A stretch of DNA of 64,000 bases from an uncultured Gemmatimonadales bacterium (lineage in GTDB: Bacteria; Gemmatimonadota; Gemmatimonadetes; Gemmatimonadales; GWC2-71-9). Position numbers and translations under genes: made by a program. Position 1 is the stretch's first letter, and the number at the start of each line of letters is the position of its first letter. The notes under the pieces are model-generated. The model saw only the letters and a list, made by a program, of their open reading frames with translations, did not search any database and had not been told where the DNA came from. The stretch lies in NCBI GenBank assembly GCA_963779755.1, contig CAVZZO010000001.1, positions 736,001 to 800,000 on the forward strand, read 5' to 3'. This document shows positions 6,828-24,984 of the stretch, one piece after another.

Positions 6828-7166
6828 TCACACGTTATACCACACCCCATAGCCCTCCGCCCGCAGCTCCAGAGCCAGCTCCCGCTCGGTGAGTTCCGCC
6901 TCTTCCCGGGTCATGGGCGGATACATGTGATAGAAATCCGGCCGCAGGCGCACCCCGTACCGATAAACGAAGCGGTTCCCCTTCCGGCCCGTCAGGTGCC
7001 GGCCCAGTCGTTCTTCGGGAGAGAGGCAGGTGGAGCCGACGTAGAGGCAGAGCCGGCCTCGTTTGTATCCGGGATTCTCCCGGAGAAAGGCCCGCTCCTT
7101 CAGGACCTCGCGGTCCAGCTCGACCACATACACCCGGCAGTGGGCCGGAGGGTCCGGGGAAGACAT
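6828..7166 (-). CDS. Small GIY-YIG-nuclease-like protein
   Basis: VYVVEL...LYVGST..PEERL..H...A...E pattern of the GIY-YIG fold. Confidence 0.6.
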   Translation of the reverse strand: MSSPDPPAHCRVYVVELDREVLKERAFLRENPGYKRGRLCLYVGSTCLSPEERLGRHLTGRKGNRFVYRYGVRLRPDFYHMYPPMTREEAELTERELALELRAEGYGVWYNV

Positions 7167-7261
7167 CGCGCCCGGAGCATAGCAGCACCCCAACGAAAGA
7201 GGGAAGCGAGCCTGCCCGCTTCCCTCTCCCCTCTCTCTCCACGGTTCTCGTGTCTGAGGTT

Positions 7262-8383: not shown

Positions 8384-8524
8384 CGGTGTCTCCGGATTGA
8401 GGGTGCGCGCGGCAATCGGCCCTAACTTGGCGGAAGGCAGTCAAGCGACGGTCAAGTCCCTGTGTGAAGGCATCTTCATGCCCGCTTCGTGAAGCCTTCT
8501 CGGGCTTTTCCCACCTTTCTGGTC

Positions 8525-8758
8525 ATGATTTCCACCCTGGCCGATCTGCCCGCCGGCACCGAGGCAACGCTGGAGCGGCTGGAGCTCGAGCCCGATGCGT
8601 CGATCCGCCTGATGGAGCTGGGCTTCTATCCCGGCGCGACGGTGCTGGCGGTTGGCGCGGCTCCAGGCGGCGATCCGCGGGTATTCCGGGTGGACGGGGC
8701 CGATGTAGCCCTGCGGCGGGAAACCGCCCGCCGGGTCCTGCTGCGGGACACGGCGTGA
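8525..8758 (+). CDS. feoA: Ferrous iron transport protein A
   Basis: RLMELGFYPG...APGGDP...ALRR; its stop overlaps the feoB GTG. Confidence 0.9.
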   Translation: MISTLADLPAGTEATLERLELEPDASIRLMELGFYPGATVLAVGAAPGGDPRVFRVDGADVALRRETARRVLLRDTA

Positions 8759-10650
8759 GTTCCTGCCACGGCGGCGCCGCCACCCTGCGCCTCGAGCCTT
8801 CCGCTGCGGCGGCCACCCAGAGCGTGACGGTGGCCCTGGTGGGGCCTCCCAACGCCGGCAAGTCCACCCTGTTCAACCGGCTGACCGGGCTGCGGCAGAC
8901 GGTCGCCAACTACCCCGGCGTGACAGTCGAAGTCCGCCGGGGCCGGCTCAGGATGGGTCGGGGTCGGGACGTGGAGCTGCTCGACCTGCCGGGCACCTAC
9001 AGCCTGCAGCCCCGCAGCGAGGACGAGCAGGTGACCGACGATGTCCTGCGCGGGCGGATGCCGGGCGCCGGAAAGCCCGATGCCGTCCTGCTGGTGCTGG
9101 ATGCGACCAATCTGGGCCGGCACCTGGTGCTGGCGGCGCCGGTCCTGGCGCTGGGGATCCCCACCCTGGTGGTCCTGAACCTGGTGGACGATCTGGAGCG
9201 GCGCGGCGGAACGGTCGATGCCGCGGCGCTGGCCCGGCAGCTTGGCGCCCCGGTGACCCTGGCCAGCGCAGCCACGGGACGCGGGCTGGAGACCATCCAC
9301 CAGTTCCTCGCCGGCCGGTTCGCGGTCCCCGCGCGGATTCCGCTGCCGGTGATCCAGAACATGCCGGCCTGCCGCGAGTGGGCGGGCCGGCTGGCGCGGG
9401 GTTCCGATTACCGGCCGCCCCTTGCCTCGGCCTGGACCAGGCGGCTGGACCGGGTGTTCCTCCACCCGGTGGCGGGGCCGCTGATCTTTCTGGCGGTGGT
9501 GGTTGCGGTGTTCCAGGCGATGTTCAGCGCCGCTGCCCCTCTCTCGGATGCCATGGAGACGGCAATCACCGGGATGGGGGGCATCCTGGTGGCGCTGCTG
9601 CCGGCCGGCTGGGTCCGCGATCTCCTGGCCCAGGGGGTGGTCGCCGGGGTTGGCTCGGTGCTGGTCTTCCTCCCCCAGATCGCGGTGCTGTTCCTGTTCA
9701 TCGGCGTGCTGGAGGACTCCGGCTATCTGGCCCGCGCGGCCCTTATCGCCGACCGCACCCTGGCCCGGGTGGGATTGCAGGGGAAGTCGTTCATCCCCCT
9801 CCTGTCGGCCTATGCCTGTGCAGTGCCCGCGGTGCTGGCGGCGCGGACGATCGAGAGCCGGCGCGACCGGCTGGCGACCATCCTGATCGCGCCGTTCATG
9901 ACATGCGCGGCCCGGCTGCCGGTGTACACCCTGATCATCGCCGCCTTCCTGCCCAACCGATCGCTCCTGGGTCCGGTGTTCGGCGTCCGGGCCGCCGCGC
10001 TGCTGGGCCTCTATGTGTTGGGGCTGCTGGCGGCAATCGGCACGGCCCGGCTGCTCAAGTCCACCATCCTGAAGAGCGACCGGACGCCCTTCGTGCTGGA
10101 GCTGCCGCCCTACCGCTGGCCTACGCTGCGCTCGCTGGGGCTGCGGCTGGTGGATCGCTCCCGCGCCTTTCTCGCCCGGGCGGGCACGGTGATCCTGGCC
10201 GTGACCGTGGGCCTCTGGGTGCTCTGCCATGTGCCGCGGGTGAACGGGAACGATCCCGACCTGAGCCGCAGCGTGGCCGGCACCCTGGGCCGGGCCATCG
10301 AGCCGGCCATCCGGCCGCTGGGCTTCGACTGGAAGGTGGGGGTGGGCCTGGTGACCTCGCTGGCCGCACGCGAGGTGATCGTGGGGACGCTGGGTACCAT
10401 CAACGGCATTCAGGGCGATGACTCACCCGAAGGGCTGCAGCGGGCGCTGCGGCGCGATCTCTCACCGGCCGGCGCGGCGGCCCTGCTGGTGTTCTTCGCC
10501 TTCGCGATGCAGTGCATCTCGACCATCGCGGTGGTCCGCCGCGAGACGGGCAGCTGGCGGCTGCCGGCGCTGCAGTTCGGCTACATGCTCACCCTGGCGT
10601 GGACCGGCGCCTGGGTGGCGCATTTCCTGGTGACAAGATTGATCGGCTGA
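8755..10650 (+). CDS. feoB: Ferrous iron transport protein B
   Basis: G1 GPPNAGKS, NYPGVT, DLPG and NLVD motifs; membrane part with LEDSGYLARAA, CAVP, MTCAARLP and ELPPY. Confidence 0.95.
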   Translation: MSSCHGGAATLRLEPSAAAATQSVTVALVGPPNAGKSTLFNRLTGLRQTVANYPGVTVEVRRGRLRMGRGRDVELLDLPGTYSLQPRSEDEQVTDDVLRGRMPGAGKPDAVLLVLDATNLGRHLVLAAPVLALGIPTLVVLNLVDDLERRGGTVDAAALARQLGAPVTLASAATGRGLETIHQFLAGRFAVPARIPLPVIQNMPACREWAGRLARGSDYRPPLASAWTRRLDRVFLHPVAGPLIFLAVVVAVFQAMFSAAAPLSDAMETAITGMGGILVALLPAGWVRDLLAQGVVAGVGSVLVFLPQIAVLFLFIGVLEDSGYLARAALIADRTLARVGLQGKSFIPLLSAYACAVPAVLAARTIESRRDRLATILIAPFMTCAARLPVYTLIIAAFLPNRSLLGPVFGVRAAALLGLYVLGLLAAIGTARLLKSTILKSDRTPFVLELPPYRWPTLRSLGLRLVDRSRAFLARAGTVILAVTVGLWVLCHVPRVNGNDPDLSRSVAGTLGRAIEPAIRPLGFDWKVGVGLVTSLAAREVIVGTLGTINGIQGDDSPEGLQRALRRDLSPAGAAALLVFFAFAMQCISTIAVVRRETGSWRLPALQFGYMLTLAWTGAWVAHFLVTRLIG

Positions 10651-10673
10651 TTTCCAGATAGCTTTACCGCGCC

Positions 10674-10701
10674 CTTCGCGACTCTTCGCGTCTTCGCGGT
10701 T
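10674..10701. repeat. Solo arm of the cgcgaagac-type short-unit repeat family
   Basis: Reverse complement AACCGCGAAGACGCGAAGAGTCGCGAAG closely matches the arms at 22618 and 22844. Confidence 0.7.
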
Positions 10702-10702
10702 C

Positions 10703-12019
10703 TCAGTTCCCGATCTCCTGCACCACCTCGCTCCCTGCCTCCGCGCCCTTGCGCAGCTCGAAATGCGCCGGGGCGCCCAAGCGCAGCCAGACGTTCCCGT
10801 TCTTGCGGGTAAGGGTGGAATCGCCCGGGAAGAGAAACAGCCCGGTCGCATCCACGGTGTCGAAGGCCACCTCCTCCCGCAGGTCGCCCACATCGGCAAC
10901 ATGGGGCTCCCTCTGCGCCACCGGATCGCCGTAGTTCAGCGCCACATCCGCGCGGAGCGGGGCCTTGCCCGGCAGCACCAGGTCGCCGCCCCGGATCAGC
11001 ACGTCGTGGGCGCCCCCGGTATTGTAGGGCAGCCGGGTGTAATCGGCCGAATCGGCTTGCCGGTAGGAGCCGGTGCCGATGGCGTCCAGCGCCCCCAGGA
11101 TACCGGCTACGTTGATGGCGCGGAGCCGCTGCTTCCCGGGGTCGTGGGGCAGCGCGCCGCTCTCGATCAGTACGGTGCTGGTGCCCCAGGTCTGTACCAG
11201 GTCGCCGAAGGCGCGCGGGTTGAAGGTGTCGTCGTACTTGGCGATATGGCCGGGAATGTCATGTCCCAGGAGCCGGGCCAGCACCGCCGCCACCAGCCGG
11301 GCGCGGGAGCGCACCGCGTTCCAGGTCCCGGCGGTATCGGTGGCGGGCGCCAGCAGCGCGATGGCCGAGCGGTGGCCGTCTATGCCCACCCGGGTGCGGG
11401 CTCCCTGGTCGTGCAGGTTGAAGCCGAAATCGGGCACCAGGCTGTCGCGCAGGCCCTTGAGCGCCCGTGCCTCGGGCGTCGCCAGCCGCCGGGCGTCGCG
11501 GTTGATGTCAATCCCGGCGGCGTTCTGCCGCTGGAAGAGCTGGGCTCCGTCCGGATTCAGCATGGGCACAAAGACGATGGTCAGGTTGCGGCGCAGCCGC
11601 TCCCGGAGGGAGTCGCCCCGGGCCTGGGCCAGGAAGCGGAAGATGTCGGCCAGGGCCATGGTGGCGGTGGATTCATCACCGTGCATCTGCGACCACAGCA
11701 ATACCTTGACGGGCCCGGTCCCGTAGGTCACCGCCCGGATGCCGCGTCCCTGGAGGGATTGCCCGATCTCGGCCGAGTGGAGGTCGGTGCCGGCGGTGAA
11801 GGGTGCCACCGCCTGCCAGAACTCGTCGTGGGTGAACCGCCGGGTGGCGATAGCCGCCACGTGGTAGCTGTCCGCCACCCGCAGGCCTTTGGTGAGCACG
11901 TCGAGCGTGCAGCAGCCGGCCGGCGAGTCGGACGTCCCTCCCCGAGCCGGCATCTGGGCGGCGGCGGGGAGGGAGAGGGACAGGGACAGCGCCAGAAGCG
12001 CCGCGACTGGACGACTCAT
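10703..12019 (-). CDS. Secreted M14 zinc carboxypeptidase family protein
   Basis: Signal peptide; QMHGDE, VPMLNPDG, DINRD, FNLHDQ and LIESG motifs. Confidence 0.9.
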   Translation of the reverse strand: MSRPVAALLALSLSLSLPAAAQMPARGGTSDSPAGCCTLDVLTKGLRVADSYHVAAIATRRFTHDEFWQAVAPFTAGTDLHSAEIGQSLQGRGIRAVTYGTGPVKVLLWSQMHGDESTATMALADIFRFLAQARGDSLRERLRRNLTIVFVPMLNPDGAQLFQRQNAAGIDINRDARRLATPEARALKGLRDSLVPDFGFNLHDQGARTRVGIDGHRSAIALLAPATDTAGTWNAVRSRARLVAAVLARLLGHDIPGHIAKYDDTFNPRAFGDLVQTWGTSTVLIESGALPHDPGKQRLRAINVAGILGALDAIGTGSYRQADSADYTRLPYNTGGAHDVLIRGGDLVLPGKAPLRADVALNYGDPVAQREPHVADVGDLREEVAFDTVDATGLFLFPGDSTLTRKNGNVWLRLGAPAHFELRKGAEAGSEVVQEIGN

Positions 12020-12097
12020 GGGCAGGGCTCGTTGGTGTGGGAACTCTCGCAAGATATCGTTTCGCAGTTTATCTCTGCCCGGCCGACGGCGGAATCG

Positions 12098-12229
12098 TCA
12101 GTCGCCGGAATCTCGGTTCCGGCCGCGCCACGCCGCGACGGCGATGGCGGTGCAGACCACGATGGAGGGCAGCACCAGGATCACCATGCCGCTCAGCATG
12201 GCATGGACGAAGCGTTCCATGGTGCTCAT
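12098..12229 (-). CDS. 43-aa single-TM peptide ending the oxidase operon (below the ORF-track cutoff)
   Basis: AGGAGG RBS; MSTMERFVHAMLSGMVILVLPSIVVCTAIAVAAWRGRNRDSGD*. Confidence 0.65.
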   Translation of the reverse strand: MSTMERFVHAMLSGMVILVLPSIVVCTAIAVAAWRGRNRDSGD

Positions 12230-12254
12230 GGGGCGGCCCTCCTGGGGCGTTGGC

Positions 12255-12557
12255 TCACGGCAGGGGGAGCCGGTGGGAGAAGAGCCGGAAGGCGTCGGGC
12301 CAGAGGTGGTCCATCATGATCAGCACGAATACCAGGGCGGGGATCAGGGCCCAGGCCAGCCGCCGCTCGTAACGGAGGTGCATGAAGAACATGAGGGCGA
12401 TGGCGGCCTCAATCACGGCCAGCCCCAGCAGCGCCGCCAGCCGCTCGTGGACCGTGAGCCCGGCGTAGGTCAGGGCCACCTCGACCGCCACGATGGCGAT
12501 GAGCGCGATCCAGACGATGATATGGGTGCGGAAGCGCGGCTCGGCGTGTTCGGTCAT
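12255..12557 (-). CDS. coxD: Cytochrome c oxidase subunit IV family protein
   Basis: Three TM segments; FFMHLRYE motif; operon position. Confidence 0.85.
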   Translation of the reverse strand: MTEHAEPRFRTHIIVWIALIAIVAVEVALTYAGLTVHERLAALLGLAVIEAAIALMFFMHLRYERRLAWALIPALVFVLIMMDHLWPDAFRLFSHRLPLP

Positions 12558-12595
12558 GGGTGGACTCGTGGTTCGAAGTTCAGGTCAGGGTCACA

Positions 12596-12684
12596 AGGGC
12601 CAGGGTCAAAGGTCGAAAGTCAAAGTCCGGCGCCGGCCAGTTTCTCGCGCCCGGGTTCGACCTTCGACCTTGGACCTTGGTCCT
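12596..12684. repeat. Inverted pair of 7-nt-unit tandem arrays (aaggtcg-type)
   Basis: Left arm AGGGCCAGGGTCAAAGGTCGAAAGTCAAAGTCCGG; right arm reverse complement AGGACCAAGGTCCAAGGTCGAAGGTCGAACCCGG. Confidence 0.75.
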
Positions 12685-12713
12685 CTGGAGCCATGCATGG
12701 GGGCCATTCCTCG

Positions 12714-13358
12714 CTACCGGGCCGCGTTCATCAGGTAGACCAGCGGGAACACGAACATCCACACCAGGTCTACGAAGTGCCAGTACAGTCCCAGCGTTTC
12801 GATATGGCCATCATTGAGGCGGCCGCGGCGGAACATCAGAGCGATGGTGCCGATGGCAATGACCCCGCAGATCACGTGGGCCAGGTGCAGCCCGGTAATG
12901 CCGAAGAACGACGCGCCGAAGATCGCCGAGCCGCCCAGGGGATTATGCGACGGGCTCCAGCCCTCATGAAACATGCTGAACCACTCGCGCAGATGCAGCG
13001 CGGCGAAGAGGATCCCCAGCAGCGCGGTAACCCAGAGCCAGCCGGTGCTCGCCGCCCGCCGCCCGGCCCTGGCCGCGGCGACCGCCGCCAGCATGCTGAG
13101 GCTGCTGGTGAGCAGGATCAGGGTCATCACCATGCCGTTGATGATGGTCGGGCTGAACTTGAAGGGCGTGGTCCAGTTGGGGCTGCCCAGGCGCAGGAAG
13201 CCGTAGGCGAACAGAATGGCGCCGAAGGTGGCCGCGTCGGCGATGATGAACAACCAGATGACCAGCTTCTTCGACTCGATCCGGAAGGGAGATTCCTCCT
13301 GTGCGCCGGCGTGGGCGTGCGCGCCGGCGGCCGGCATGGTCGTATCGGTATGAGTCAC
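12714..13358 (-). CDS. coxC: Haem-copper oxidase subunit III family protein (second copy)
   Basis: WLFIIADAATF, LLTSS, TGLHLAHV and GLYWHFVDLVW motifs; GTG start with GGAGGA RBS. Confidence 0.9.
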   Translation of the reverse strand: MTHTDTTMPAAGAHAHAGAQEESPFRIESKKLVIWLFIIADAATFGAILFAYGFLRLGSPNWTTPFKFSPTIINGMVMTLILLTSSLSMLAAVAAARAGRRAASTGWLWVTALLGILFAALHLREWFSMFHEGWSPSHNPLGGSAIFGASFFGITGLHLAHVICGVIAIGTIALMFRRGRLNDGHIETLGLYWHFVDLVWMFVFPLVYLMNAAR

Positions 13359-13395
13359 GGGTCCTCCGGAAGAAGGTCGGTCGCTCGCCCGGGGT

Positions 13396-13992
13396 TCAGA
13401 TCCTGAACACCAGCACCACGAACACGTACAGCCACAGCGCCGTCATGAAATGCCAGTAGAGCGCCGCGCCGCGCAGCGCGCCGGCCGGTGAGGGGCCGGT
13501 CATCCGCCCCAGCTTCGCCCGGACATACTGCAGTGCCACCAGCCCGCCGGTGAGGTGCAGCGCGTGCAGCACCGTCAGCAGATAGAAGAACGCGCTGCTG
13601 GGGCTGCTGCTCAGCGAGAGACCCTGGGCCACCAGCTGCCGCCAGGCGATGATCTGGCCCGCCAGGAAGAGCAGCCCCAGCACCAGGGTCAGGGTGATCC
13701 AGCGGAGCGCGTTGGGCGCCACCACCAGGTCGGCCCGGTTCTGCTGGCCCGGCAGGCCCGCCGTGGTTGCCTGCCGCGCGCCGGACAGTTCCAGCGTCAC
13801 GCTGCTCAGCAGGACGATGGCCGAGTTGAGAAACAGGATGGGCGGGAGACGGAAGTGCAGCCAGTCTGCCGCGGCCCCCTCGCGGACCACCATGGCGCTG
13901 GTGTAGGCCGCGAAGGACATGGCGATGGTCGCGATCCCGACCCAGACACCGGTACGGGTCGCTCGGGGAGGCGCGGGTCGCACGGCGGTCAC
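13396..13992 (-). CDS. coxC: Haem-copper oxidase subunit III family protein (first copy)
   Basis: LLSSVT, FFYLLTVLHALH and LYWHFM motifs; GTGA overlap with the coxA stop. Confidence 0.88.
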   Translation of the reverse strand: MTAVRPAPPRATRTGVWVGIATIAMSFAAYTSAMVVREGAAADWLHFRLPPILFLNSAIVLLSSVTLELSGARQATTAGLPGQQNRADLVVAPNALRWITLTLVLGLLFLAGQIIAWRQLVAQGLSLSSSPSSAFFYLLTVLHALHLTGGLVALQYVRAKLGRMTGPSPAGALRGAALYWHFMTALWLYVFVVLVFRI

Positions 13993-15803
13993 ACGGCCTC
14001 CCCGGGCACGGTCTCGGGCGAGGTCTGCATGACATAGTCGCCCTGCGAGCCGGCCACGCCGTAGACGTCAGGCAGGTGATGCACCACGGGGTGGCGGCCG
14101 CCGAAGTTGTCGACCGGCGGCGGCGAGGTGGTGCTCCACTCCAGCGTGGTGGCTTCCCACGGGTTGTCCGGGGCCACCGGGCCGCGGCGCTTGCTCCAGA
14201 AGAAGTTCCACAGGAAGATCAGCTGCACCGCGCCGGTGAAGAGCGCCGCCACCGTGATGAACCGGTGCAGCGGGATCGACCCCTTCATGTACTCGTCGGT
14301 GAACGCGGAGTAGCGGCGGACGTTGCCCGCCAGGCCCAGGTAGTGCATCGGCATGAAGATGCAGTACACCCCGATGAAGGTCAGCGCGAAGTGGATCTTG
14401 CCCAGCTTTTCGCTCATCATCCGGCCGTAGATCTTGGGGAACCAGAAATAGGTCCCCGCGAACATGGCAAAGATGGCGGCGACCGCCATGACGAAGTGGA
14501 AATGCGCCACGACGAAGTAGGTCCCGTGCAGGTAGGTGTCGATGGACGGCTGCGCCAGGAAGAAGCCGCTGATGCCGCCGCTCACGAACACCGAGATGAA
14601 GCCGAGGCAGAAGAGCGCGGCCGCGGTGAAGCGGATCTTGCCGCCGTACACGGTGCCGATCCACAGCAGGGTCGCGATCGTCGCCGGGATGGTAATAATC
14701 AGGGTCGGAATGGAGAACAGCGTTGCCGAGAAGGGGTTCATCCCGCTCAGAAACATGTGGTGGCCCCACACGGTGTAGCTCAGGAAGCCCACGGCCACCA
14801 TGCAGCCGATGATCACGCGGGGGCCCAGCAGGGGCTTACGCACGAATGTCGGCAGGATGTGGGAGATGATCCCGAACGCCGGCAGGATGGCGATGTACAC
14901 CTCGGGATGGCCGAAGAACCAGAAGAGATGCTGCCACAGGAGCGGGGAGCCCCCGGCGTGGTCCTGCAGCCGGTCGCTCACCACCAGCCCGGCCGGAATA
15001 AAGAAGCTGGTACCGGCCAGCCGGTCGAGCAGCAGCAGGATGCAGGCGGGGAGCAGGACCGAAAAGGCGATCAGGCCGATCACCGAGGTGATGAACCAGG
15101 CCCAGGTGGTGTAGGGCATCCGGCGCAGCTTCATGCCCTTGGTCCGCAGGTCCAGCGTGGTGGAGATGAAGTTGAGCGAGCCCAGCAGCTGGCCGATGCA
15201 GAAGATCCCGATGGATACCACCCAGAGCGTCTGCCCCAGCCCCTGGCCCGGGCCGGCGTCCTGGCCCACGGCGCTGAGCGGGGCGTAAGCGGTCCAGCCG
15301 GAGAGGGCCGGCCCCTGGGGCACGAAGAACGACGCCACCAGCACCAGGAACGCGAGGCAGGTCACCCAGAACGACATCATGTTGAACCGGGGAAACGCCA
15401 TGTCCTCGGCGCCGATCTGGATCGGCAGCATGTAGTTGCCGAAACCGGCGAAGGGAGCGGTGGTCAGTACGAAGAAGACCATGATGGTCCCGTGCATGGT
15501 CATGAGCGAGAGATACATCTCGGGGGTCATGACCCCGCCGGCGGCACCGGTGGGCGCCAGGGTACTCAGGCCGGGAATGGCGAACTTGGGCCATGCCAGG
15601 TGCAGCCGCATGAGCCACGACAGCACCATCCCCGTCACCACCGCCACCAGGGCCAGATCGAGATATTGCTTCCCGATCACCTTGTGGTCGAGGCTGAAGA
15701 TGTGCGTCCGGATAAAGCCGTGCGGGGGTTCGTGCTTGATCTGGCTGATCTTCGCAGCGGTTTCCCGGCGACGGGGTGCGGCGGGCGCTGGGGTGTCGTC
15801 CAT
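13989..15803 (-). CDS. coxA: Cytochrome c oxidase subunit I, A1 type
   Basis: DHKVIG, TMHGTIM, DMAFPRFN (D-channel), WFFGHPEVY, WGHH, AHFH and RRY motifs. Confidence 0.97.
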   Translation of the reverse strand: MDDTPAPAAPRRRETAAKISQIKHEPPHGFIRTHIFSLDHKVIGKQYLDLALVAVVTGMVLSWLMRLHLAWPKFAIPGLSTLAPTGAAGGVMTPEMYLSLMTMHGTIMVFFVLTTAPFAGFGNYMLPIQIGAEDMAFPRFNMMSFWVTCLAFLVLVASFFVPQGPALSGWTAYAPLSAVGQDAGPGQGLGQTLWVVSIGIFCIGQLLGSLNFISTTLDLRTKGMKLRRMPYTTWAWFITSVIGLIAFSVLLPACILLLLDRLAGTSFFIPAGLVVSDRLQDHAGGSPLLWQHLFWFFGHPEVYIAILPAFGIISHILPTFVRKPLLGPRVIIGCMVAVGFLSYTVWGHHMFLSGMNPFSATLFSIPTLIITIPATIATLLWIGTVYGGKIRFTAAALFCLGFISVFVSGGISGFFLAQPSIDTYLHGTYFVVAHFHFVMAVAAIFAMFAGTYFWFPKIYGRMMSEKLGKIHFALTFIGVYCIFMPMHYLGLAGNVRRYSAFTDEYMKGSIPLHRFITVAALFTGAVQLIFLWNFFWSKRRGPVAPDNPWEATTLEWSTTSPPPVDNFGGRHPVVHHLPDVYGVAGSQGDYVMQTSPETVPGEAV

Positions 15804-15856
15804 GAGCCTGCCCTTTCAGGGAAGAGAGTGCGCCGGCCAGAGGCCGGGCTCGGGAA

Positions 15857-16657
15857 TCAGTAGCCGGCCTGCTCCTGAAGCCAGGCATCGAACTTGTCCG
15901 GCGCCATGACATCCAGGTATGCCCGCATGTTGTAGTGCCCCAGCCCGCAGAGCTGGGTACAGACGATCTCGGTGTGCGCCGTCTGCGTGGCGGTGAAATG
16001 GACCGGGATCACCAGGCCGGGCACGAAGTCCTGCTGCAGCCGCAACGCGGGCACAAAGAAATTGTGGCTCACGTCCTTGGCATGCAGGGTCAGCAGCACC
16101 GGTTTGTTCACGGGCACGCCGAGGGAGGCCGTGACGATATCGTCCCGGGCCGCCACGTCGTTGGCCGGATCGAGCCCGAAGAAGTTGTAGTTGCCCTCGT
16201 CGATCAGCTCGGGATGAATGGTGCCGAACTTTCCATCGGGGCCGGGGTAGCGAAAGTAGAAGGCGAACTGTTCCGCCTGGACGTCGATCTGGAGCGCGTC
16301 GGCCGGGGCCGGCGAGAGGTAGATCTGGCTCCAGATCCGGGTGCCGACCAGCGACAGCACGATGATCTCCACGCCGACCAGCGCCGAGGCCAGCACCACC
16401 AGCGGGGTGGCTCCGCCGGGGAAGGTCTTGACCGGCCGGTCGTCCCGTTTGTCGCCATAGCGCCAGACGAACGTGGCCAGCGCCAGCTGGGCCAGCACAA
16501 ACAGCACGCCGGAGGCGATGAGGGTCTCGGTGAGCTGATGGTCGATGCCGGCCCCGGTCGTGGAAATGTCCGGCGGCAGCCACCAGATCCGCGCAATGAA
16601 AATGCCGGTGGATACGACGGTGATGATCGCCAGAACCACCGCGAACAGCTTGCCCAT
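15857..16657 (-). CDS. coxB: Cytochrome c oxidase subunit II (CuA), no fused haem c
   Basis: Membrane anchor; DVSHNF and CTQLCGLGHYNM CuA ligands; GAGGAGGA RBS. Confidence 0.93.
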   Translation of the reverse strand: MGKLFAVVLAIITVVSTGIFIARIWWLPPDISTTGAGIDHQLTETLIASGVLFVLAQLALATFVWRYGDKRDDRPVKTFPGGATPLVVLASALVGVEIIVLSLVGTRIWSQIYLSPAPADALQIDVQAEQFAFYFRYPGPDGKFGTIHPELIDEGNYNFFGLDPANDVAARDDIVTASLGVPVNKPVLLTLHAKDVSHNFFVPALRLQQDFVPGLVIPVHFTATQTAHTEIVCTQLCGLGHYNMRAYLDVMAPDKFDAWLQEQAGY

Positions 16658-16688
16658 CAGTCCTCCTCGTCGCAGAGAACCCAGGCGA

Positions 16689-16859
16689 ATCCGCGGACTG
16701 CGCAGATTGCGCGGATATCAGATCGAGGATGTGTCCGTGTCGTGAAACCGCTGAGGCCTGTCCCCGGGCCCATCGAAGATGTCCCGCGCAGGCTACGCAG
16801 ACCGGCGCCCGGCGGGGTGCCAATCTGCGTAGTCTGCGCGATCTGCGTGATCTGCGGAT
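16689..16859. repeat. Inverted pair of 9-nt-unit arrays (gcagattac-type) inside the oxidase operon
   Basis: Left arm ATCCGCGGACTGCGCAGATTGCGCGGAT; right arm reverse complement ATCCGCAGATCACGCAGATCGCGCAGACTACGCAGATT; partial internal copy near 16784. Confidence 0.75.
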
Positions 16860-17578
16860 CAGTAGGGCAGTGCCTTGAAGACGAAGTCCGCCGTCGCCGC
16901 GCCGCTGGCCGGGACGGTCACTTCCGCGGTCTGCCGGCCGAACCGCTCATGCCACGCGGTGACGGTGTACTTCCCGGCCGGCAGGCCTTCCAACGAGAAC
17001 TTCCCATCCTTGTCGGTGACCGCGTAGTGCCCGTTGTCGAGCACCACGAAGTAGCCGTGCATCCAGGGATGGATGTTGCATTTCACCGGGATGAACTCCG
17101 GCTTGGCATAGCTGGTCTCGATGGGCGGCGCCCCGGACGGCTGCGACTTGTTCCATTCGGGGTTGGTCTTGGCCAACGGATGGATGTTATGCGACGTCTT
17201 GTCGTTATTCCGGATCTCGAGCGGTTGATTGACCTGCATGACCGCGACGTGGGGGACATACTGGCAGCCCTTCTGGTCGTAGTCGACCTTCTGCGTCGCG
17301 GCCTTGCCGCCGGCGGGGGCGCCGGCCGAGATGTACACTACCACGTTGGCCAGCGTGTTACCCTCGCCCTTCACCACTGTTTCGGTCACGACAGGGGAGG
17401 AGTGCTGGGCCGCGCAGCTGGGCTCCTTGGCCATATCGATCGGATGCATCTTGGGCGGCGTGCCGGTAAAGGTCACCGTCCCGGTAATGGAACCGGCCGC
17501 GGGTGCCGGTGCCGCCGGCGCGCCCAGGGTGGCGGTGAAGAGAATCAGAATGGGTGCAGCAACCTGAAGTGTACGCAT
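16859..17578 (-). CDS. Periplasmic cupredoxin-like protein with a carboxypeptidase-regulatory-like beta-sandwich domain
   Basis: Signal peptide; HNIH...VKCNIHPWM type-1 Cu ligand set; TDKDGKFSLEGLPAGKYTVTAWHE. Confidence 0.8.
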   Translation of the reverse strand: MRTLQVAAPILILFTATLGAPAAPAPAAGSITGTVTFTGTPPKMHPIDMAKEPSCAAQHSSPVVTETVVKGEGNTLANVVVYISAGAPAGGKAATQKVDYDQKGCQYVPHVAVMQVNQPLEIRNNDKTSHNIHPLAKTNPEWNKSQPSGAPPIETSYAKPEFIPVKCNIHPWMHGYFVVLDNGHYAVTDKDGKFSLEGLPAGKYTVTAWHERFGRQTAEVTVPASGAATADFVFKALPY

Positions 17579-17611
17579 CGTTTGACGTCCCTCGACAGAA
17601 AGTCCGGACTG

Positions 17612-18469
17612 TTAGCGGGTGCCAGCCGACTCCGGTCCGATCGGAGCCAGCTCGTTCTGATGTTGCGGCAGCCAGGCGTGCCAGACCGCGGCCTCAGGCG
17701 TCTGCAGCGGCTGCAGGGTGCGGAGGAAGTGCACCAGATCCCAGGCGTCGGCCGGCTGGATGTAGTCGGCGAACGACGGCATGGGGGTGCCGTCCAGCCC
17801 CGTCATGAAGATCCTGTAGATGTCGCGGTTGGTCGAGCCGCACTTGAAGCGCGGCACACCGGCGGCAAAGTTGTACGGCCGGATCGGCTGGTCCTTGCTG
17901 TCGGTCAGCGTGGAGGCCGAGGGGCCGTCGCCGTGGCCCGCGGGGCCGTGGCACTTCCAGCACTCCAGCTTCTGGAACAGTTCCCGCCCGTGCAGGATGC
18001 TCTCGATCGTCACCGGCGGCTCGGGCGGGATATTGATGGGCGTCCCCGCCGACTCGTGCTGCCAGCGGGGCGAGAAGGTCTTGATGTAGGCGATCAGATC
18101 CACCCGCTTCTGCGAAGGCAGCGGCCGCCACTGGGGCATGTTGGTGGTGACGAAGCCGCGGGTGATCGCGTCGTACAGGTCCTGATCGGTGGGCAGCGTG
18201 CCGCTCGGCGTGGACCGGCACTTGAACGTGGCCTGGGTGAAATCCCGCGGCTTGGGGTCGATCCACATGGCGTTCTCACCCTGGCCGTCGCCATTGGGGC
18301 CGTGACAGCCGATGCAGAACCGCCGGTAATACTTCTTGCCGGCCGCGGCGCTGCCGGTCATGCCGTCTACCTTCGTGACCGCCTGGGCCCGGGCCGCCGT
18401 GGCGCCGGCGGTGGTCAGCACCAGGCCGAGCGCGGCGGTGCAGGCCAGCGTGGAGTACAAGCGACGCAT
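17612..18469 (-). CDS. Periplasmic dihaem cytochrome c
   Basis: Signal peptide; CIGCH and CWKCH, each followed by an MP axial-Met motif (NMPQW, PMPSF); GGAGG RBS. Confidence 0.92.
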   Translation of the reverse strand: MRRLYSTLACTAALGLVLTTAGATAARAQAVTKVDGMTGSAAAGKKYYRRFCIGCHGPNGDGQGENAMWIDPKPRDFTQATFKCRSTPSGTLPTDQDLYDAITRGFVTTNMPQWRPLPSQKRVDLIAYIKTFSPRWQHESAGTPINIPPEPPVTIESILHGRELFQKLECWKCHGPAGHGDGPSASTLTDSKDQPIRPYNFAAGVPRFKCGSTNRDIYRIFMTGLDGTPMPSFADYIQPADAWDLVHFLRTLQPLQTPEAAVWHAWLPQHQNELAPIGPESAGTR

Positions 18470-18487
18470 CTCAAACCTCCCGGGTGG

Positions 18488-19948
18488 TCAGAAGTCGAAG
18501 TCGAGCCCGAGGAAGACGCTGGTGCTCTTCACCGGCGTCGTGGGCGTCAGGGGGTCGACCCCGGCGCCGTCTCCGCTTAGCGGCATGGTTCCGATCGTCT
18601 TGGTGAAGGAGATCTCACCGATCCAGGCCAGGCCCGCCCGGCTGAACATGATGGGATACCAGCGGTACCCCAGCGTGTAGGCGTCCACGTTGCCCATCTT
18701 GTCGGGGATGCCGGGATCCACCTGCTGCGACATCCGCACCAGCTCGCCCCGCCCGATGAAGACGAACTGCGGGTTCACGTAGTAGTGCGCCTCCAGCAGG
18801 TAGTCGTTCCACTTGGAAGCCTGCGTCCCGGCGCCCAGCGCCGCGTCCGAATGGGCGTGCATGAAGAAGGGGATGAACTCGAGCTGGCCGAGGAAGAGAT
18901 CGCCCACGGCGCCCAGCCGGTAGAAGGTCTTGCCGTCGCTGCCGGTCCCCGGAATCGGCTCGCCGCCCACCGTGATGAACGAGGTCGGCCGCTGGCCCAG
19001 GTACCCGAACACCCCGATCCGGGACACGCCCAGCCGCCCGGCGTCGAAGGCCTGGTCGAAGGTGCCGAAGAAGTCGTAGCCCTGGCTGGTGGTCAGCCCG
19101 GCCTCGCCGTTGGACTGCTCCAGCACGGCGACGCTGGCCCGGGTATAGCTGTTGATCGAATGGCCCAGCCATTCGGCGCCGATCTGGTTCTCGCCCAGGT
19201 CGAACCCGGTGCCGTCGCCCACCGGCGCGAAGTGATAGCCCTGATAGAACCCGCCGTTGTTGGACAGCGTCATGCCGCGCTTCTCGGAGAGCATGTTGTT
19301 CAACTCGAACTTGCCCACCTTGAGGTTGGCCCAGGGCGACTTGAACAGGTTGTTGAAACGGACGAACACGGCCTCGAGCGCCGCGCCCCCGTCTTCGAAG
19401 ACCGGGACGAAACCAAAGGAAATGTTCTTGTAGAGGGTGCCCAGCATGAGGAGGTCTGCCCCGCCGATATCGAAACCCGACTGGGTGACGGTCCGCTCGA
19501 TGGTGCCGCCGGTGCCGTCGTCCACCGGCTGGTTGGTGGTGCGCTCCATGCGCCACTGCGGCGTGGTGCGCACCGCCGCGGGCCAGTAGGCCGGGTTGGT
19601 CCAGATGGGCGAATCCCGCTCGTTGCCCATCTGATACCCGTTGTCCTTGAAGGTCTGCCCGAACTCGTTGAGCTCCGGCCACGCCGTGTGGCAGGCCGAA
19701 CAGGGCAGCCCGTATTTGCGGGCAAAGGCCGGAATGGCGGCATTGCGGTGCACCGCATTCAGTCGGGAAGCGATGTACGCGCGGACCGCGGGGGCGGTGG
19801 CGGACAGCGCTACCGGGGCGGCCACGACGGCCCGCGCCGGAGTGGCGGCGGGAGCGGGGGCAGCAGCGAGTGGGGGGACGGCCGGCGACGCCAGTGCCAG
19901 CGTGCCGAGCAGTCCGAGCGAAAGGCCCTTCGTGAACCACGCCATCAT
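18488..19948 (-). CDS. cyc2: Cyc2-like outer-membrane fused cytochrome c-porin
   Basis: AIPAFARKYGLPCSACH...PELNEFGQTFKDNGY N-terminal signature; amphipathic beta strands; C-terminal GLDFDF. Start re-called to ATG 19948 (or 19945) behind AGGAGG. Confidence 0.8.
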   Translation of the reverse strand: MMAWFTKGLSLGLLGTLALASPAVPPLAAAPAPAATPARAVVAAPVALSATAPAVRAYIASRLNAVHRNAAIPAFARKYGLPCSACHTAWPELNEFGQTFKDNGYQMGNERDSPIWTNPAYWPAAVRTTPQWRMERTTNQPVDDGTGGTIERTVTQSGFDIGGADLLMLGTLYKNISFGFVPVFEDGGAALEAVFVRFNNLFKSPWANLKVGKFELNNMLSEKRGMTLSNNGGFYQGYHFAPVGDGTGFDLGENQIGAEWLGHSINSYTRASVAVLEQSNGEAGLTTSQGYDFFGTFDQAFDAGRLGVSRIGVFGYLGQRPTSFITVGGEPIPGTGSDGKTFYRLGAVGDLFLGQLEFIPFFMHAHSDAALGAGTQASKWNDYLLEAHYYVNPQFVFIGRGELVRMSQQVDPGIPDKMGNVDAYTLGYRWYPIMFSRAGLAWIGEISFTKTIGTMPLSGDGAGVDPLTPTTPVKSTSVFLGLDFDF

Positions 19949-20192
19949 ACCGCCTCCTGGTGGAAGTACGGCAGGCCGGGACGGGTGCGGAGGACACCGG
20001 AACCCACGGGCAAACCAGCAGCGGCGAAACAGCGCCGCGGTGACGCCAAAAAGCTGACCCGGCGGCAGCTGCGACCAGCCAGGGATCAGGAGGAAACGCC
20101 GAATTGCCTCGACGCGTTGCTCGATATGCTCGGTCTGATCGGAGAGCGGCACGGCGATCAGGGGGGATCGCCGGTCGGAATTATCCAGCGAT

Positions 20193-20221
20193 GAAATACA
20201 AACTGGCGGATTTCTTGTCAA
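20193..20221 (-). promoter_or_regulatory. Putative sigma70 promoter for the cyc2-cox operon
   Basis: Minus strand TTGACA-17 nt-TATTTC within an AT-rich patch. Confidence 0.55.
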
Positions 20222-20567
20222 GCAGAAGCTTTACAGCAACCAGCTTGTAACAAATGGTGCAAGGCGACTGAATGGCCGGGAAACAGCGCGTTCCTCTCCC
20301 TGTGGCCGCACGGTCGGGACAGTATCCCCGCACTTCCCGATCGACCTTCTTGCCCGGCTGTCCCCTGACAGGTCCGTAGCCGCGCCGCGAGATCGCCGCC
20401 GCCGGGGATCGACATCGGCCGCGGTAACCACCGGCCCCCCGCGGCTCCCTGCTCCCCATGTCCCGGGACTGGTTCCCATGACTCTTCCTGGGTATTTCTC
20501 AGGTCCGGGCCGCGATGCCTGCCGCAGATGTACGGTCCTTCCTCCACCCGCCTGATCCGGGGGTATT

Positions 20568-22607
20568 ATGCGATTTGCGCCTGTCCTGATGCTTGCCGTT
20601 CTCGCCGCGCCGGCTGCGGCGCAGCAGTCCTCCTCCTGGCCCGCCCGTCCCATCCACCACGACATCCCGATGACCGACATGATCCAGCGGGCGTTCGCCG
20701 CCGGCACGCGGGATTCCAGCGGGAAACCGGGCCCCCACTACTGGCAACTGCACACCGACTATGCCATCCAGGCCAGGTTCGACCCGGCCACCGGGCTGGT
20801 CACCGGCAGCGAGCATGTGACGGTGCAGAACCCGAGCGACAGCGCGCTCAACGCGATCGTGCTGCGCCTGGACCAGAACCTCTTCACGGCCAACGTTCCG
20901 CGGGCCGAGGTGGTCACCCAGATCACCGGCGGTATGCAGCTCAGCCGGTTGCAGGTGAACGGCCAGCCGGTGGATCTCAACCCGCCGCCGCGGCGGCGCC
21001 GGTTCGGCGGCCAGGCGCCCCAGGTAACGCTGGCGGCGTACGATACGTCGCAGACCGTCTCGGTCATCACCCTGCCCGAGCCGGTCGCGGCCCACGGCAG
21101 CTTCACCCTGGACGCCGACTGGACCTTCACCGTGCCCAAGGTGGACTCGGGGACGCGGGGGGTGCGCATGGGCGCCTGGGGCGATTCGCTCTACCAGGTG
21201 GGCCAGTGGTACCCGCGGGTCGCGGTCTACGACGATCTGCGCGGCTGGGACACCGATCCCTACCTCGGCCCCTCGGAGTTCTATAACAACTTCGGCCATT
21301 TCGACGTGAAGCTCGACCTGCCGGCCGGCTGGATCGTCGGCGCCACCGGCACACTCCAGAACCCCGGGGAGGTGCTGACGCCGGCGGTGCGGCAGCGGCT
21401 GTCGCAGGTGCTGGCGGCCGACTCGACCATCCGCATTCTGGGACCCGACGAGTTCGGCCCCGGCAAGGCGACCGCCGCGGGCGAGCGGCTGGTGTGGCAC
21501 TTCACCGCCGACACGGTGGGCGACGTCGCCTGGGCGGCCTCCAACCAGTTCGTGTGGGATGCGACCAATGCCGCCATTCCCGGCGGCTCGAAGATCCCCG
21601 TCTACATCATGTATCTCCCCGGCCACGAGAAACAGTACGCCGCCGCCGGCCCCATCGCGCGGCACGCCCTCGAGTTCTACTCCGGGCTGTGGATGCCCTA
21701 CAGTTTTCCCTCGCTCACCATCGTGGACGGCCCCGAGCTGGGGATGGAATATCCCATGTTCATCATGTCCAGCGCCGGCGCGGCCGATCATGAAATCGGG
21801 CATCAGTGGTGGCCCATGATGGTGGGCACCAACGAGACCTGGTACGGCTTCATGGACGAGGGTTTCAACCAGTACATGAACATCCTGTCCCGCGACGACC
21901 GGATGAGCCGGCCCGCCAATCTCGACGGCTACGGCCAGGCCTACGGCCAGATCAGCGGTAACGAGCGGGAGGCGCCGCTCATGTGGGATGCCAACTACGG
22001 CGGCCCCATGTACTCCTTTCAGGCGTACGGCAAGGCGCCCATGATGCTGTCGATGCTGGGAGGGATCGTGGGAGACACGGCGGTGTGGCGCGCCATGAGC
22101 GGCTACGCCAAAGCCTGGAAATTCAAACACCCCAGCCCCTGGGATTACGCGTTCTATATGGATACCGCGCTGCACCGGGACCTGGGCTGGTTCTGGTACT
22201 ACTGGCTCTTCACCACGGACGCGGTAGACGGCTCGATCCAGGGGGTGAAGACCAGCGGCGGCCGCACCACGGTGACGGTGCGGCAGGCGGGCGAGATGCC
22301 CTCACCGGTAGTGCTGGCGGTGCATTTTGCGCCCCAGGGGCCGGCCATTCGCGCGATGCGCAACGCCACCGTGGTCGATGACTCGACCGCCGTCGTGCGC
22401 TGGCCCGCGAGCGTCTGGTGGAACGGCAGCCGGACCTTCGACGCGACGCTCGATTTCGGGCCCCGGAAGATTGACCGCATCGTGTTCGATCCCCACTGCC
22501 GGTTCCCCGACAACAACGTGGACGACAACACCTGGCCCCGCCAGGCGGCGCCGGCGGATACGGCCCAGGCAAGGGGCCGCTTTGCCGGGCCACAGTGCCG
22601 GGGGTAG
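20568..22607 (+). CDS. Secreted M1 family zinc aminopeptidase
   Basis: Signal peptide; GMEYP; HEIGHQWW...MDEG. Confidence 0.92.
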   Translation: MRFAPVLMLAVLAAPAAAQQSSSWPARPIHHDIPMTDMIQRAFAAGTRDSSGKPGPHYWQLHTDYAIQARFDPATGLVTGSEHVTVQNPSDSALNAIVLRLDQNLFTANVPRAEVVTQITGGMQLSRLQVNGQPVDLNPPPRRRRFGGQAPQVTLAAYDTSQTVSVITLPEPVAAHGSFTLDADWTFTVPKVDSGTRGVRMGAWGDSLYQVGQWYPRVAVYDDLRGWDTDPYLGPSEFYNNFGHFDVKLDLPAGWIVGATGTLQNPGEVLTPAVRQRLSQVLAADSTIRILGPDEFGPGKATAAGERLVWHFTADTVGDVAWAASNQFVWDATNAAIPGGSKIPVYIMYLPGHEKQYAAAGPIARHALEFYSGLWMPYSFPSLTIVDGPELGMEYPMFIMSSAGAADHEIGHQWWPMMVGTNETWYGFMDEGFNQYMNILSRDDRMSRPANLDGYGQAYGQISGNEREAPLMWDANYGGPMYSFQAYGKAPMMLSMLGGIVGDTAVWRAMSGYAKAWKFKHPSPWDYAFYMDTALHRDLGWFWYYWLFTTDAVDGSIQGVKTSGGRTTVTVRQAGEMPSPVVLAVHFAPQGPAIRAMRNATVVDDSTAVVRWPASVWWNGSRTFDATLDFGPRKIDRIVFDPHCRFPDNNVDDNTWPRQAAPADTAQARGRFAGPQCRG

Positions 22608-22617
22608 AATGCTCTTT

Positions 22618-22870
22618 AACCGCGAAGACGCCAAGAACGCCAAGGTCTGTTTGTGGAGGAGCGCCTTTAACGCCTCGCCCGCGTCCGGCGTGCCGTTACC
22701 CTGAACCCGCTTTGCGCGCCTCGCGCGTCCCGCCTAAGTGGAAATGCCACCGCATGGACGTCGCGCAATACGTTGGTGGGAGGAGTTTCGTGTCTTGTGC
22801 GACAGGCGAGGGATCGAACGCATTCCCCGCCCATAGGCGCCTTCTTCGCGTGCTTTGCGTCTTCGCGGTT
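22618..22870. repeat. About 250-bp MITE/REP-like element with 27-bp terminal inverted repeats made of 9-nt units
   Basis: AACCGCGAAGACGCCAAGAACGCCAAG versus reverse complement AACCGCGAAGACGCAAAGCACGCGAAG (24/27 identical). Confidence 0.75.
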
Positions 22871-22895
22871 TCATTTCCCTTCCAGAGGAGGCTTG

Positions 22896-24289
22896 ATGCG
22901 CAGATCTGTCTTGGTGTCCGCTATCGTCCCTGGGCTCGTTGCGGCGGCGCTTCACGCCCAGGACCCGGGCGTCGCCGTGCGCCCTTCGACCAGAAGCACG
23001 GCGGCAGCAAGTCGGTACAGCTGGTGGCCCACGTGGTGACCCATCCCGGCGCCTGGAAGGCTGCGGACATCGAGATGGAGCAGGATCCCGGCCGTCCCTA
23101 CGTGTACATCTCCGGCTTCGTCAACAACGACGCGCAGATCTACGACGTGCGCGATCCGGCCCACCCGAAAAAGGTCTTCGACTGGACCATCGAGAACCCC
23201 GAGCTGCACCGCGGCATCGGGGCCATGGACGGGAAGTACTTCAAGGTGGGGAACCGCTATTACTACGCCCAGTCCTGGCAGTTCATGCAGGGAAGCCCCG
23301 ACACCGATCTCGGCGCCATCATCTGGGACGTGACCGGGCTGCCCGATTCCTCGAAGGTGAAAGAGGTGGCGCGGATCCGCTATCCCCAGTCGCCGGGCGG
23401 CTTCCATAATACCTTTGCCTACAAGCACTCCGACGGGCGGGTGCTGTACTTCGCCACCGTCAACCAGCCCTACGCGCTGATCTATGATCTGGGCAAGATC
23501 GTGAGCGGAGCGGATACCAGCACCTGGCTGGTCGGCAAGGTCCCCAACCCCACGCCCTTCCGCCAGATCGGGGCCGGCGGATACCACGACTTCTACGTGG
23601 GCTACGACCCGGCCACCCATCAGGACAAGTTCTACGGCGCCGGGCTGGGCGGCTATTCGGTGTGGGATGTTACCCACCCCGAGCAGCCCACGGCGATGTT
23701 CACCATCACCGGGCTGGGCATGGACATCGCCCATACGTTTACCCCCTCGCCCGACGGGCGCTACGCCGTCACCGAGACGGAATACCAGTACACCCCGCTG
23801 CGGATCTGGGACCTCCAGCCCGGGCAGACGGGCAAGCAGCAGAACCTGGATATCGCCATGAGCGCCTGGGCCGCCGACTGGCGCGACCTCTCCCATAATC
23901 ACGAGGTCCGCTGGCCCTACGTGTTCGTCTCAGCGTACGAGGACGGCTTCCAGGTGTTCGATCTGAAAGACCCCGCAAACCCGAAGACCGACGGCTGGTA
24001 CTTCACCTGCGAATGCCAGCACGAGCACGGCTTCGGCGGGACGCCGGATAACGGCTGGCAGAGCACCACCAGTGTGGAGCAGGGGGCCTTCGGGGTGGAC
24101 GTGCGCAACTCCGACGGGCTCATCGCGCTGTCCGACATGCGCACCGGCCTCTGGCTGTTCCGCCTCAACGGCTTCAAGGGGTGGAACGGAAAGGACGTGG
24201 GCATGCCCAACATCTCCAGCGTGCAGGACTGGGACCACGGCCCGGCGGCCGCCATGACGCCGGCCGGCTCGCCGGGCGGCGGCCGGTGA
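22896..24289 (+). pseudogene. Secreted LVIVD-type His-rich beta-propeller protein with an apparent frameshift near 22982-22984 (real or a sequencing error)
   Basis: GAGGAGG plus ATG 22896 gives a signal peptide (MRRSVLVSAIVPGLVAAALHAQDP). The mature domain (PFDQKHGG..., IYDVRDP, VWDVTHP, VFDLKDP, HN/HD/HT motifs) is in the -1 frame. Confidence 0.7.
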
Positions 24290-24810: not shown

Positions 24811-24955
24811 GAATCCACAGATTACACAGATTACGCAGATTACTGGTGATTGATTTCCGTGATTACTTCAACCCGCAAGCCATCTGGTCGTCGATGCTGG
24901 GAACCCCGCTCAGGGAAGGGGTTAATCTGTATAAATCTGTGTAATCTGTGGATTC
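24811..24955. repeat. Inverted pair of 9-nt-unit arrays (acagattac-type)
   Basis: 22-bp perfect inverted repeat GAATCCACAGATTACACAGATT at both ends, around an AT-richer core. Confidence 0.85.
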
Positions 24956-24984
24956 CTCCTCGCGCTCTCGGCGTCCTCGGACTC

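Follow-up and report, generated by a model that had tools for sequence, protein, structure and literature searches.

A conserved gene block of Gemmatimonadota joins a Cyc2-family cytochrome-porin to an A1-type oxidase and resembles the rus operon in layout but not in its parts

We analysed a 64,000-nucleotide stretch of DNA (the window) from an uncultured Gemmatimonadales bacterium, in which nine co-oriented open reading frames (ORFs), all on the minus strand between positions 12098 and 19948, encode a Cyc2-family cytochrome-porin, a dihaem cytochrome c, a copper protein, the subunits of a terminal oxidase and a small membrane peptide. The operon is real and conserved; its function, as we infer it, is like that of the chain encoded by the rus operon, but it is not a member of the rus operon family. 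As judged from sequences and structure models, the Cyc2 haem-porin, a His/Met dihaem, a type-1 copper protein and a complete A1 oxidase with CuA travel as one gene block. The block most probably serves as an electron wire from the outer membrane to oxygen, and Fe(II) has about an even chance of being its donor. The layout has been known in Gemmatimonadetes since a 2020 preprint (10.1101/2020.03.01.968255) and so is not new, whereas the parts, by their sequences, are not the ones found in the classic iron oxidiser of acid mines.

All nine genes of the original prediction were found. Pfam and NCBIfam recognise two cytochrome c domains in the dihaem and assign COX2, COX1, two COX3 proteins and COX4_pro, and the intergenic gaps, from the porin to the terminal 43-amino-acid peptide, are 18, 33, 201, 53, -4, 37, 156 and 25 nt. 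The peptide has no Pfam or NCBIfam family match. It was, however, matched by tblastn in 21 of 58 related loci, and its hidden Markov model hit 55/55 forward and 0/55 reverse segments following coxD, where the forward segments may contain the CoxD tail. It is probably, judging by its sequence, a small oxidase subunit or an assembly factor.

The porin carries the motif by which Keffer et al. define Cyc2, AXPXFAR[Q/K][T/Y] ahead of a single CXXCH, with PXL four residues downstream (10.1101/228056): the motif lies at residues 71-79, CSACH at 83-87 and PXL at 91-93. Without the leading Ala the pattern is present in 74 of the 79 family rows, and with it in 58. The protein starts with a signal peptide (judged by eye), followed by an Ala/Pro linker with a helix, the CSACH haem site and a barrel that ends in a C-terminal Phe. 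An AlphaFold2 model (mean predicted local distance difference test score, pLDDT, 79.6; predicted template modelling score 0.77) gives a beta-barrel of about 16 strands, as read by eye from the DSSP string. Its top Foldseek matches are the porins Omp38, Omp32, PorB and OprP; the matches also include OprP 2o4v and OprO 4rjw and 4rjx, and OprP and OprO are the templates reported for Cyc2 (PMC13741234; 10.1101/228056). Set against the further marks of the family (an OprP/OprO-like barrel of about 16 strands, a length of at least 365 amino acids and a signal peptide), the protein, at 486 amino acids, belongs to the Cyc2 family on motif, modelled fold and length, as had been predicted. Searches of Pfam, NCBIfam and PDB sequences returned no match to it, and matches in the ESM Atlas were limited to clusters without a name and a lead to Porin_O_P (20% of members). 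The ARKY form of the motif resembles the N-terminus of mature Cyt572, YPGFARKY, from Leptospirillum (PMC13741234), which is a lead towards Cyc2 cluster 3 only. The likeness to the Leptospirillum Cyt572/Cyt579 pair extends weakly to the dihaem, which scores 50 bits against the cytochrome 579 model, short of its cut-off of 280. Leptospirillum, however, is an acidophilic autotroph. We also noted a predicted helix at porin residues ~50-70, ahead of the cytochrome motif, with a similar segment in a paralogue of the same genome (L081), while in several Acidobacteriota homologues the motif appears to start right behind the signal peptide.

The two carriers that follow the porin belong, as predicted, to families other than Cyc1 and AcoP. 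A profile of 76 dihaems matched PDB 6h5l chain B over its whole length with E=7e-71 (next match E=8e-9), but matched 1h1o, which we take to be Cyc1 of A. ferrooxidans, with E=0.053 and the cytochrome c4 8uf3 with E=0.076, both over short stretches; identity as Cyc1, of the cytochrome c4 family, is thereby ruled out. The protein has two CXXCH motifs and two distal Met residues, M111 and M230, of predicted His/Met haems (column counts for these residues and the two further Cys named below: 76/76, 75/76 and 76/76). 6H5L is a Kuenenia HAO-like structure (10.64898/2026.07.28.741245), and the Kuenenia HAO-like protein was crystallised with the His/Met dihaem Kustc0457 (PMC8042395), so that, from these papers, chain B would be Kustc0457 and the operon's dihaem, by sequence, a Kustc0457-type cytochrome c. 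The kustc0457 gene also neighbours a type-1 cupredoxin gene (PMC12053348). The kustc0458-0457-0456 cluster of Kuenenia therefore offers a full-length homologous dihaem likewise paired with a cupredoxin gene, although there the dihaem's partner is an octahaem HAO-like nitrite reductase rather than a porin and an oxidase. Two further Cys residues of the operon's dihaem, C84 and C210, are invariant (76/76), occupy equivalent places in its two haem domains and may form an inter-domain disulfide; the corresponding positions are not Cys in 6h5l chain B or in a rhizobial homologue.

For the copper protein, Pfam recognises the CarboxypepD_reg domain only. Its model (pLDDT 86.5), however, places a cupredoxin domain (residues ~95-180) inside a carboxypeptidase-regulatory/transthyretin-like sandwich, and this domain matches NirK, plastocyanin and amicyanin with Z of 10-11.6. 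The type-1 ligands H130, C167, H170 and M173 (His...Cys-x-x-His-x-x-Met) are kept in 70/70 rows; by modelled fold and ligands the protein is a type-1 cupredoxin, predicted to bind copper. C55 and C105 are invariant as well and possibly form a disulfide. Identity with the single-domain AcoP/Cup was ruled out, because AcoP chains came only at Foldseek ranks 36, 43 and 46 with 12-13% identity, below amicyanin and plastocyanin; nor was there an AcoP among the 28 cupredoxin profile matches with E up to 5. The N-termini of both carriers look like export signals.

Relatives of this dihaem and this cupredoxin also occur next to other oxidases. In cultured rhizobia, plasmids of Sinorhizobium and Phyllobacterium carry a member of this dihaem family as a fusion with cbb3 subunit II (40% identity), with a gene of the cupredoxin family nearby (28% identity, ligands kept) and no porin annotated in the stretches examined. 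One Gemmatimonadota genome, G260, has both carriers directly ahead of coxBA. The pair thus appear to be general oxidase-feeding proteins. The rhizobial clusters (L084 4095-12843, on pSymA of S. meliloti, and L085 10001-15695) comprise an atypical cbb3 oxidase with the dihaem-fused subunit II; the cupredoxin, SCO and hemA lie nearby, and the arrangement is open to tests in a model organism.

The arrangement of the operon is conserved well beyond the window. Among 8000 scored sequences, 2887 were porin homologues; 583 relatives were confirmed in one-per-species genomes, and the analysis went on with the best 80 of them, whose titles give Gemmatimonadota for 30 and Acidobacteriota for 44, the other 6 being of different or no assignment. 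After 22 loci with less than 7 kb of downstream sequence had been dropped, the dihaem was found in 58/58 loci and the cupredoxin in 57/58, while all eight larger genes stood in the same order in 54/58, in both phyla. One locus, L069, is rearranged. An arrangement kept in so many loci is not due to chance. When 300 further genomes were sampled evenly across the phylum, 26 of them had a close orthologue of the porin (23 of 124 genomes of the host's family and 3 of 70 of a second family). An independent search with CoxA found close orthologues (at least 76% identity, the next best match being 49%) in exactly the same 26 genomes, and neither gene was found in the other 274; these counts come from related genomes, which are not independent of each other. 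The co-occurrence supports the predicted connection of the outer membrane to the oxidase. A predicted complex of porin and dihaem lends weak further support: it scored 0.58, against 0.28 for the best control, with runs agreeing in at least 94% of contacts and partner pLDDT of at least 82, on a scale where 116 of 157 solved complexes, but also 2 of 215 mismatches, attain the mark applied; of those that attain it, 18 solved complexes and both mismatches score 0.60 or less.

The oxidase is A1-type, with the helix VI Glu and Tyr in 56/56 CoxA rows, and its six metal-binding His, the Tyr cross-link and the D-channel residues D134, N141 and E301 are kept in 55-56 of 56. The CuA ligands of CoxB (H198, C233, C237, H241 and M244) are kept in 63-65 of 65 rows, and CoxB has no fused cytochrome c. 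The K-channel, in contrast, is altered throughout. Lys354 is absent from all 56 rows, where A, M, T, V, I or L stands instead; Thr351 is replaced by A (48) or S (8); and the entry Glu78 of CoxB is replaced by V (62, including the window's CoxB), I (2) or G (1). A different CoxB Glu, E97, is kept in 64/65 rows, and T371 and S342, polar residues unique to lysine-less oxidases, are invariant. The conserved polar residues T367, T371, S342 and CoxB E97 suggest, from the alignments, a substitute proton path. In a quick CoxA tree, used for neither donor nor direction of transfer, the window's CoxA groups among the Gemmatimonadota rows.

The state of the K-channel lends support to a protective reading, in which the chain removes Fe(II) or O2 at the surface (avoiding Fenton chemistry, or scavenging O2 for the cell's anaerobic modules) and its oxidase is slow or poorly coupled. 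In model A1 oxidases, K-channel mutations leave little activity, here the Lys, the Thr and the entry Glu are all lost, and the genome has two other A-type oxidases. On the other hand, the metal ligands and the D-channel are kept, the polar residues peculiar to lysine-less oxidases are invariant, and Acidithiobacillus grows on iron with lysine-less oxidases. We regard protection as an unlikely role.

The shared loss of the lysine is, indeed, a point in favour of an iron-fed wire, since the rus-operon oxidases of proven iron oxidisers lack it too. These oxidases are, however, A2 and keep the threonine T351 (PMC8239418, supplementary file 5), and the Gemmatimonadetes and Acidobacteria entries of the K-channel table in that file keep the lysine. 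As a specific sign of iron oxidation, loss of the K-channel had to be rejected, because two porin-free sister oxidases are also lysine-less. Their loci (L087, in G039, 5090-9261; L088, in G086, 5987-9916) hold lysine-less A1 oxidases with two COX3-like genes, and adjoin genes resembling anaerobic aromatic-degradation functions (a BadF/BadG ATPase in L088).

The original prediction called the locus a complete rus-operon-like chain, which holds for the gene order but not throughout. The rus order is cyc2-cyc1-cup/acoP-coxBACD-rus in Acidithiobacillus, Acidiferrobacter and Acidihalobacter (PMC10654088), and the order porin-cytochrome, dihaem, cupredoxin, coxBA, coxC, coxD is common to both operons; in both, too, the oxidase lacks K354 as well as the entry Glu of CoxB. 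In contrast to the rus operon, the one described here has two COX3 genes and the small peptide, no ctaAB, and carriers of other families, and sits in a host without detected RuBisCO; its CoxA is A1, not A2. No rusticyanin is encoded in the operon, where coxD is followed only by the 43-amino-acid peptide and an M14 peptidase, the search having covered this region and not the rest of the genome.

The 2020 preprint reported rus-like COX clusters in Gemmatimonadetes metagenome-assembled genomes (MAGs), with non-Cyc1 cytochromes c, duplicated COX3 and ctaA elsewhere in the genome (10.1101/2020.03.01.968255). All three features hold for the present operon, and a MAG of a similar name series (L026) carries it, so the clusters are very likely the same operon family. 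The available sections of the preprint do not identify the dihaem and cupredoxin families and do not mention a lysine-less A1 oxidase, and 'cyc2' does not occur in the main text of the article as published in a journal (PMC8239418). Two other papers (PMC11316326; PMC10367259) mention cyc2 in MAGs of Gemmatimonadota and Acidobacteriota. Our literature search, which covered few subscription journals, returned no test of the operon and no link between a Kustc0457-type dihaem and Cyc2; within the sources covered, earlier work was not found to assign the dihaem to Kustc0457, to describe the A1 oxidase without the lysine or to report that porin and oxidase co-occur genome for genome.

The preprint infers transfer from acidophiles. 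The identical gene order, the lysine-less CoxA and the Val at the CoxB entry Glu, as in rus oxidases, would all fit descent from the rus operon proper, taken over in one piece by lateral transfer from the ancestors of acidophilic iron oxidisers. Yet the dihaem is far closer to 6h5l chain B than to 1h1o, AcoP appears no higher than rank 36 for the copper protein, and CoxA is A1 and has lost the T351 that the tabulated A2 rus CoxA keeps. All three downstream parts are therefore non-orthologous to their rus counterparts, which argues against the transfer. In addition, G260, of the same phylum, has a porin-free block of dihaem, cupredoxin, coxB, coxA, COX3 and a COX4-sized ORF with an intact K-channel. 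We consider descent from the rus operon very unlikely, and convergent assembly, as originally predicted, likely on the carrier sequences, since the carriers belong to families other than Cyc1 and AcoP. Three of the 58 loci (L034, L039 and L067) have the porin-dihaem-cupredoxin triad with no oxidase within 10 kb, and the existence of this half and of the dihaem-cupredoxin-oxidase half apart from each other fits such modular assembly. The G260 locus (L089 5386-15160) has, ahead of the block, a cytochrome bd-like subunit I and cytochromes c, and the block's own Kustc0457-type dihaem is fused to an EB_dh domain.

In the wire that we propose, a donor outside the cell would reduce the single porin haem at the outer membrane, the dihaem would accept the electron at the periplasmic face, and the cupredoxin would carry it to CuA of CoxB. 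CoxA would then reduce O2, taking protons through the intact D-channel and possibly through the substitute polar path (T367, T371, S342, H315 and CoxB E97). Electrons would enter neither the quinone pool nor alternative complex III, and the cell would gain proton-motive force while organic matter still supplied its carbon and NADH (lithoheterotrophy). As for its origin, the block would owe nothing to the rus operon of Acidithiobacillus and would have arisen when a porin-cytochrome/dihaem/cupredoxin cassette came to stand ahead of an A1 oxidase with two COX3 subunits.

Dissolved or organically chelated Fe(II) is the foremost candidate for the donor of this extracellular electron-uptake branch of aerobic respiration, with roughly as much speaking for it as against. 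Cyc2 proteins of clusters 1 and 2 and two members of cluster 3 are reported to oxidise Fe(II) (PMC13741234; 10.1101/228056), among them a heterologously expressed cluster 3 protein (PMC13647500; PMC7029218). A possible alternative, to which we give a smaller share, keeps the same wire with another donor: reduced humics or quinones, another soluble redox shuttle, Cu(I), a neighbouring cell or a conductive particle. The hosts are soil-type heterotroph MAGs, the carriers are indifferent to the donor and the genome has several multihaem clusters, all of which suits this alternative, as does the presence of Cyc2 in the electrode oxidiser Tenderia, the function of cluster 3 and distant Cyc2 being unverified (10.1101/228056; PMC7029218). 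Nevertheless, the Cyc2 proteins tested in the cited studies all oxidised Fe(II) (PMC13741234; PMC13647500; 10.1101/228056), and Keffer et al. predict that a monohaem barrel suits small dissolved Fe2+ (10.1101/228056). In the alignment, acidic and His residues are kept in the barrel region (for example D160, D165, E192, E215, E222, H239, H263 and H388, in 77-79 of 79 rows) and would fit a path for a metal ion.

Several observations weigh against Fe(II) as the donor, or against the wire itself. All 80 related loci come from MAGs, none titled as a known iron oxidiser. A Cyc2-like match is present in 119 of 301 genomes of the phylum (a tally that includes genome G157, which is not among the 26), so that the family alone says little of the donor, and the host itself has two more Cyc2-like genes away from any oxidase. 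Keffer et al. call the function of cluster 3 'most uncertain', with distant homologues unverified (10.1101/228056). The haem region of the porin model has pLDDT below 50. The carriers are generic, serving a nitrite-reducing HAO in anammox bacteria and cbb3 in rhizobia, and the oxidase-free triads show that the porin and its carriers can stand without the oxidase. Conversely, the sister CoxA proteins of G039 and G086 (48-49% identity) are lysine-less and share S342 and T371, with no Cyc2 motif within 16 kb. A conserved linkage to feoB was rejected as well, FeoB being near the operon in 1 of 80 loci. The electron path, the donor and the energy gain are all inferred.

The host genome (4.23 Mb, 97% complete) is, as predicted, that of a Gemmatimonadota heterotroph: among the 120 matches listed for each protein, all organism-named homologues of MurB (6/6) and of the porin (7/7) are from Gemmatimonadota, and neither RuBisCO nor acetyl-CoA synthase was found, the search being limited to these fixation routes. 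A search for ATP-citrate lyase gave no match in any control genome and carries no information on that route. Elsewhere in the genome are a canonical caa3 oxidase with an intact K-channel, which would serve housekeeping respiration, and a cluster resembling alternative complex III; the operon's oxidase is therefore an extra one. Haem A synthase, away from the operon, and a NiFe hydrogenase are also present. A second A-type CoxA (G000 C3:1734583-1736514; L083 12584-14515) carries Trp at the position of the helix VI Glu and lacks the K-channel Lys. The two additional Cyc2-like genes (C1:1564644-1567001, L081; C1:1594436-1595857, L082) adjoin no oxidase; in one the motif takes the RQT form and no redox gene lies next to it, and the other is directly followed by a monohaem cytochrome c. 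Large multihaem cytochrome clusters lie at C1:249634-253532, C1:711511-723722 and C3:769232-781201, with ORFs of up to 23 CXXCH.

The rest of the window had been described as a peptide- and glycan-degrading gene set. It does encode peptidases of families M1, M13 and M14 and an alpha-N-acetylglucosaminidase; among its further products are two multicopper oxidases, FeoB and a kinase (Table 1). A short ORF upstream of feoB reads like feoA by eye, with no Pfam match at 1e-6. The G+C content of the operon (0.65-0.68) is only slightly under that of the window, and we claim no sign of recent transfer. An Rfam search of window positions 7000-23000 returned no matches, a promoter scan gave 0 sites (shuffles 1.0), and terminator-like sites were 6 against 4.6 expected, a count that carries no information. 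By eye, a candidate promoter is visible at 20193-20221 on the minus strand, ~245 nt upstream of the porin start, with a perfect TTGACA, a 17-nt spacer and TATTTC, the last base of which fails the rule of the scan.

Table 1. Genes of the operon and selected neighbours in the window
Feature	Position	Strand	Basis or context
Cyc2-family fused monohaem cytochrome c/~16-strand porin, 486 aa	18488..19948	-	motif, AlphaFold2 model, Foldseek
Periplasmic dihaem cytochrome c, Kustc0457 family	17612..18469	-	profile against PDB 6h5l_B, E=7e-71
Type-1-copper-like cupredoxin domain inserted in CarboxypepD_reg sandwich	16859..17578	-	Pfam, model, ligand columns
CoxB, CuA ligands, no fused cytochrome c	15857..16657	-	Pfam COX2, alignment columns
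CoxA, A1-type, K-channel Lys absent	13989..15803	-	Pfam COX1, alignment columns
CoxC-like subunit 1 (short COX3)	13396..13992	-	PF00510, E=8e-9
CoxC-like subunit 2 (short COX3)	12714..13358	-	PF00510, E=7e-15
CoxD (COX4_pro)	12255..12557	-	PF03626, E=2e-10
Conserved 43-aa single-helix membrane peptide, basic tail	12098..12229	-	tblastn, hidden Markov model
feoB	8464-10650	+	~1.4 kb from operon end
Multicopper oxidase	24850-26619	+	same window
Multicopper oxidase	51668-53287	+	same window

The role of cyc2 homologues in organisms that are not known as iron oxidisers is an open question (10.1101/228056). Most such homologues stand alone, whereas the porin described here comes in every genome with carriers and a terminal oxidase of its own, and therefore offers the whole chain for expression and assay. 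Because this A1 oxidase is natural and conserved, and has kept its D-channel but not the lysine of the K-channel, it also provides a direct test of the requirement for the latter channel. Our full proposal, which is tentative, is that common soil Gemmatimonadales and Acidobacteriota independently built a rus-like wire, from an anammox-type relay and a lysine-less A1 oxidase with a substitute polar path along threonines of helix VIII, S342, H315 and a CoxB glutamate at greater depth, for Fe(II)-fuelled lithoheterotrophy, and may be overlooked iron oxidisers of soil. Should Fe(II) prove to be the donor, iron oxidation would gain a contribution from two abundant soil phyla that are usually seen as plain heterotrophs.

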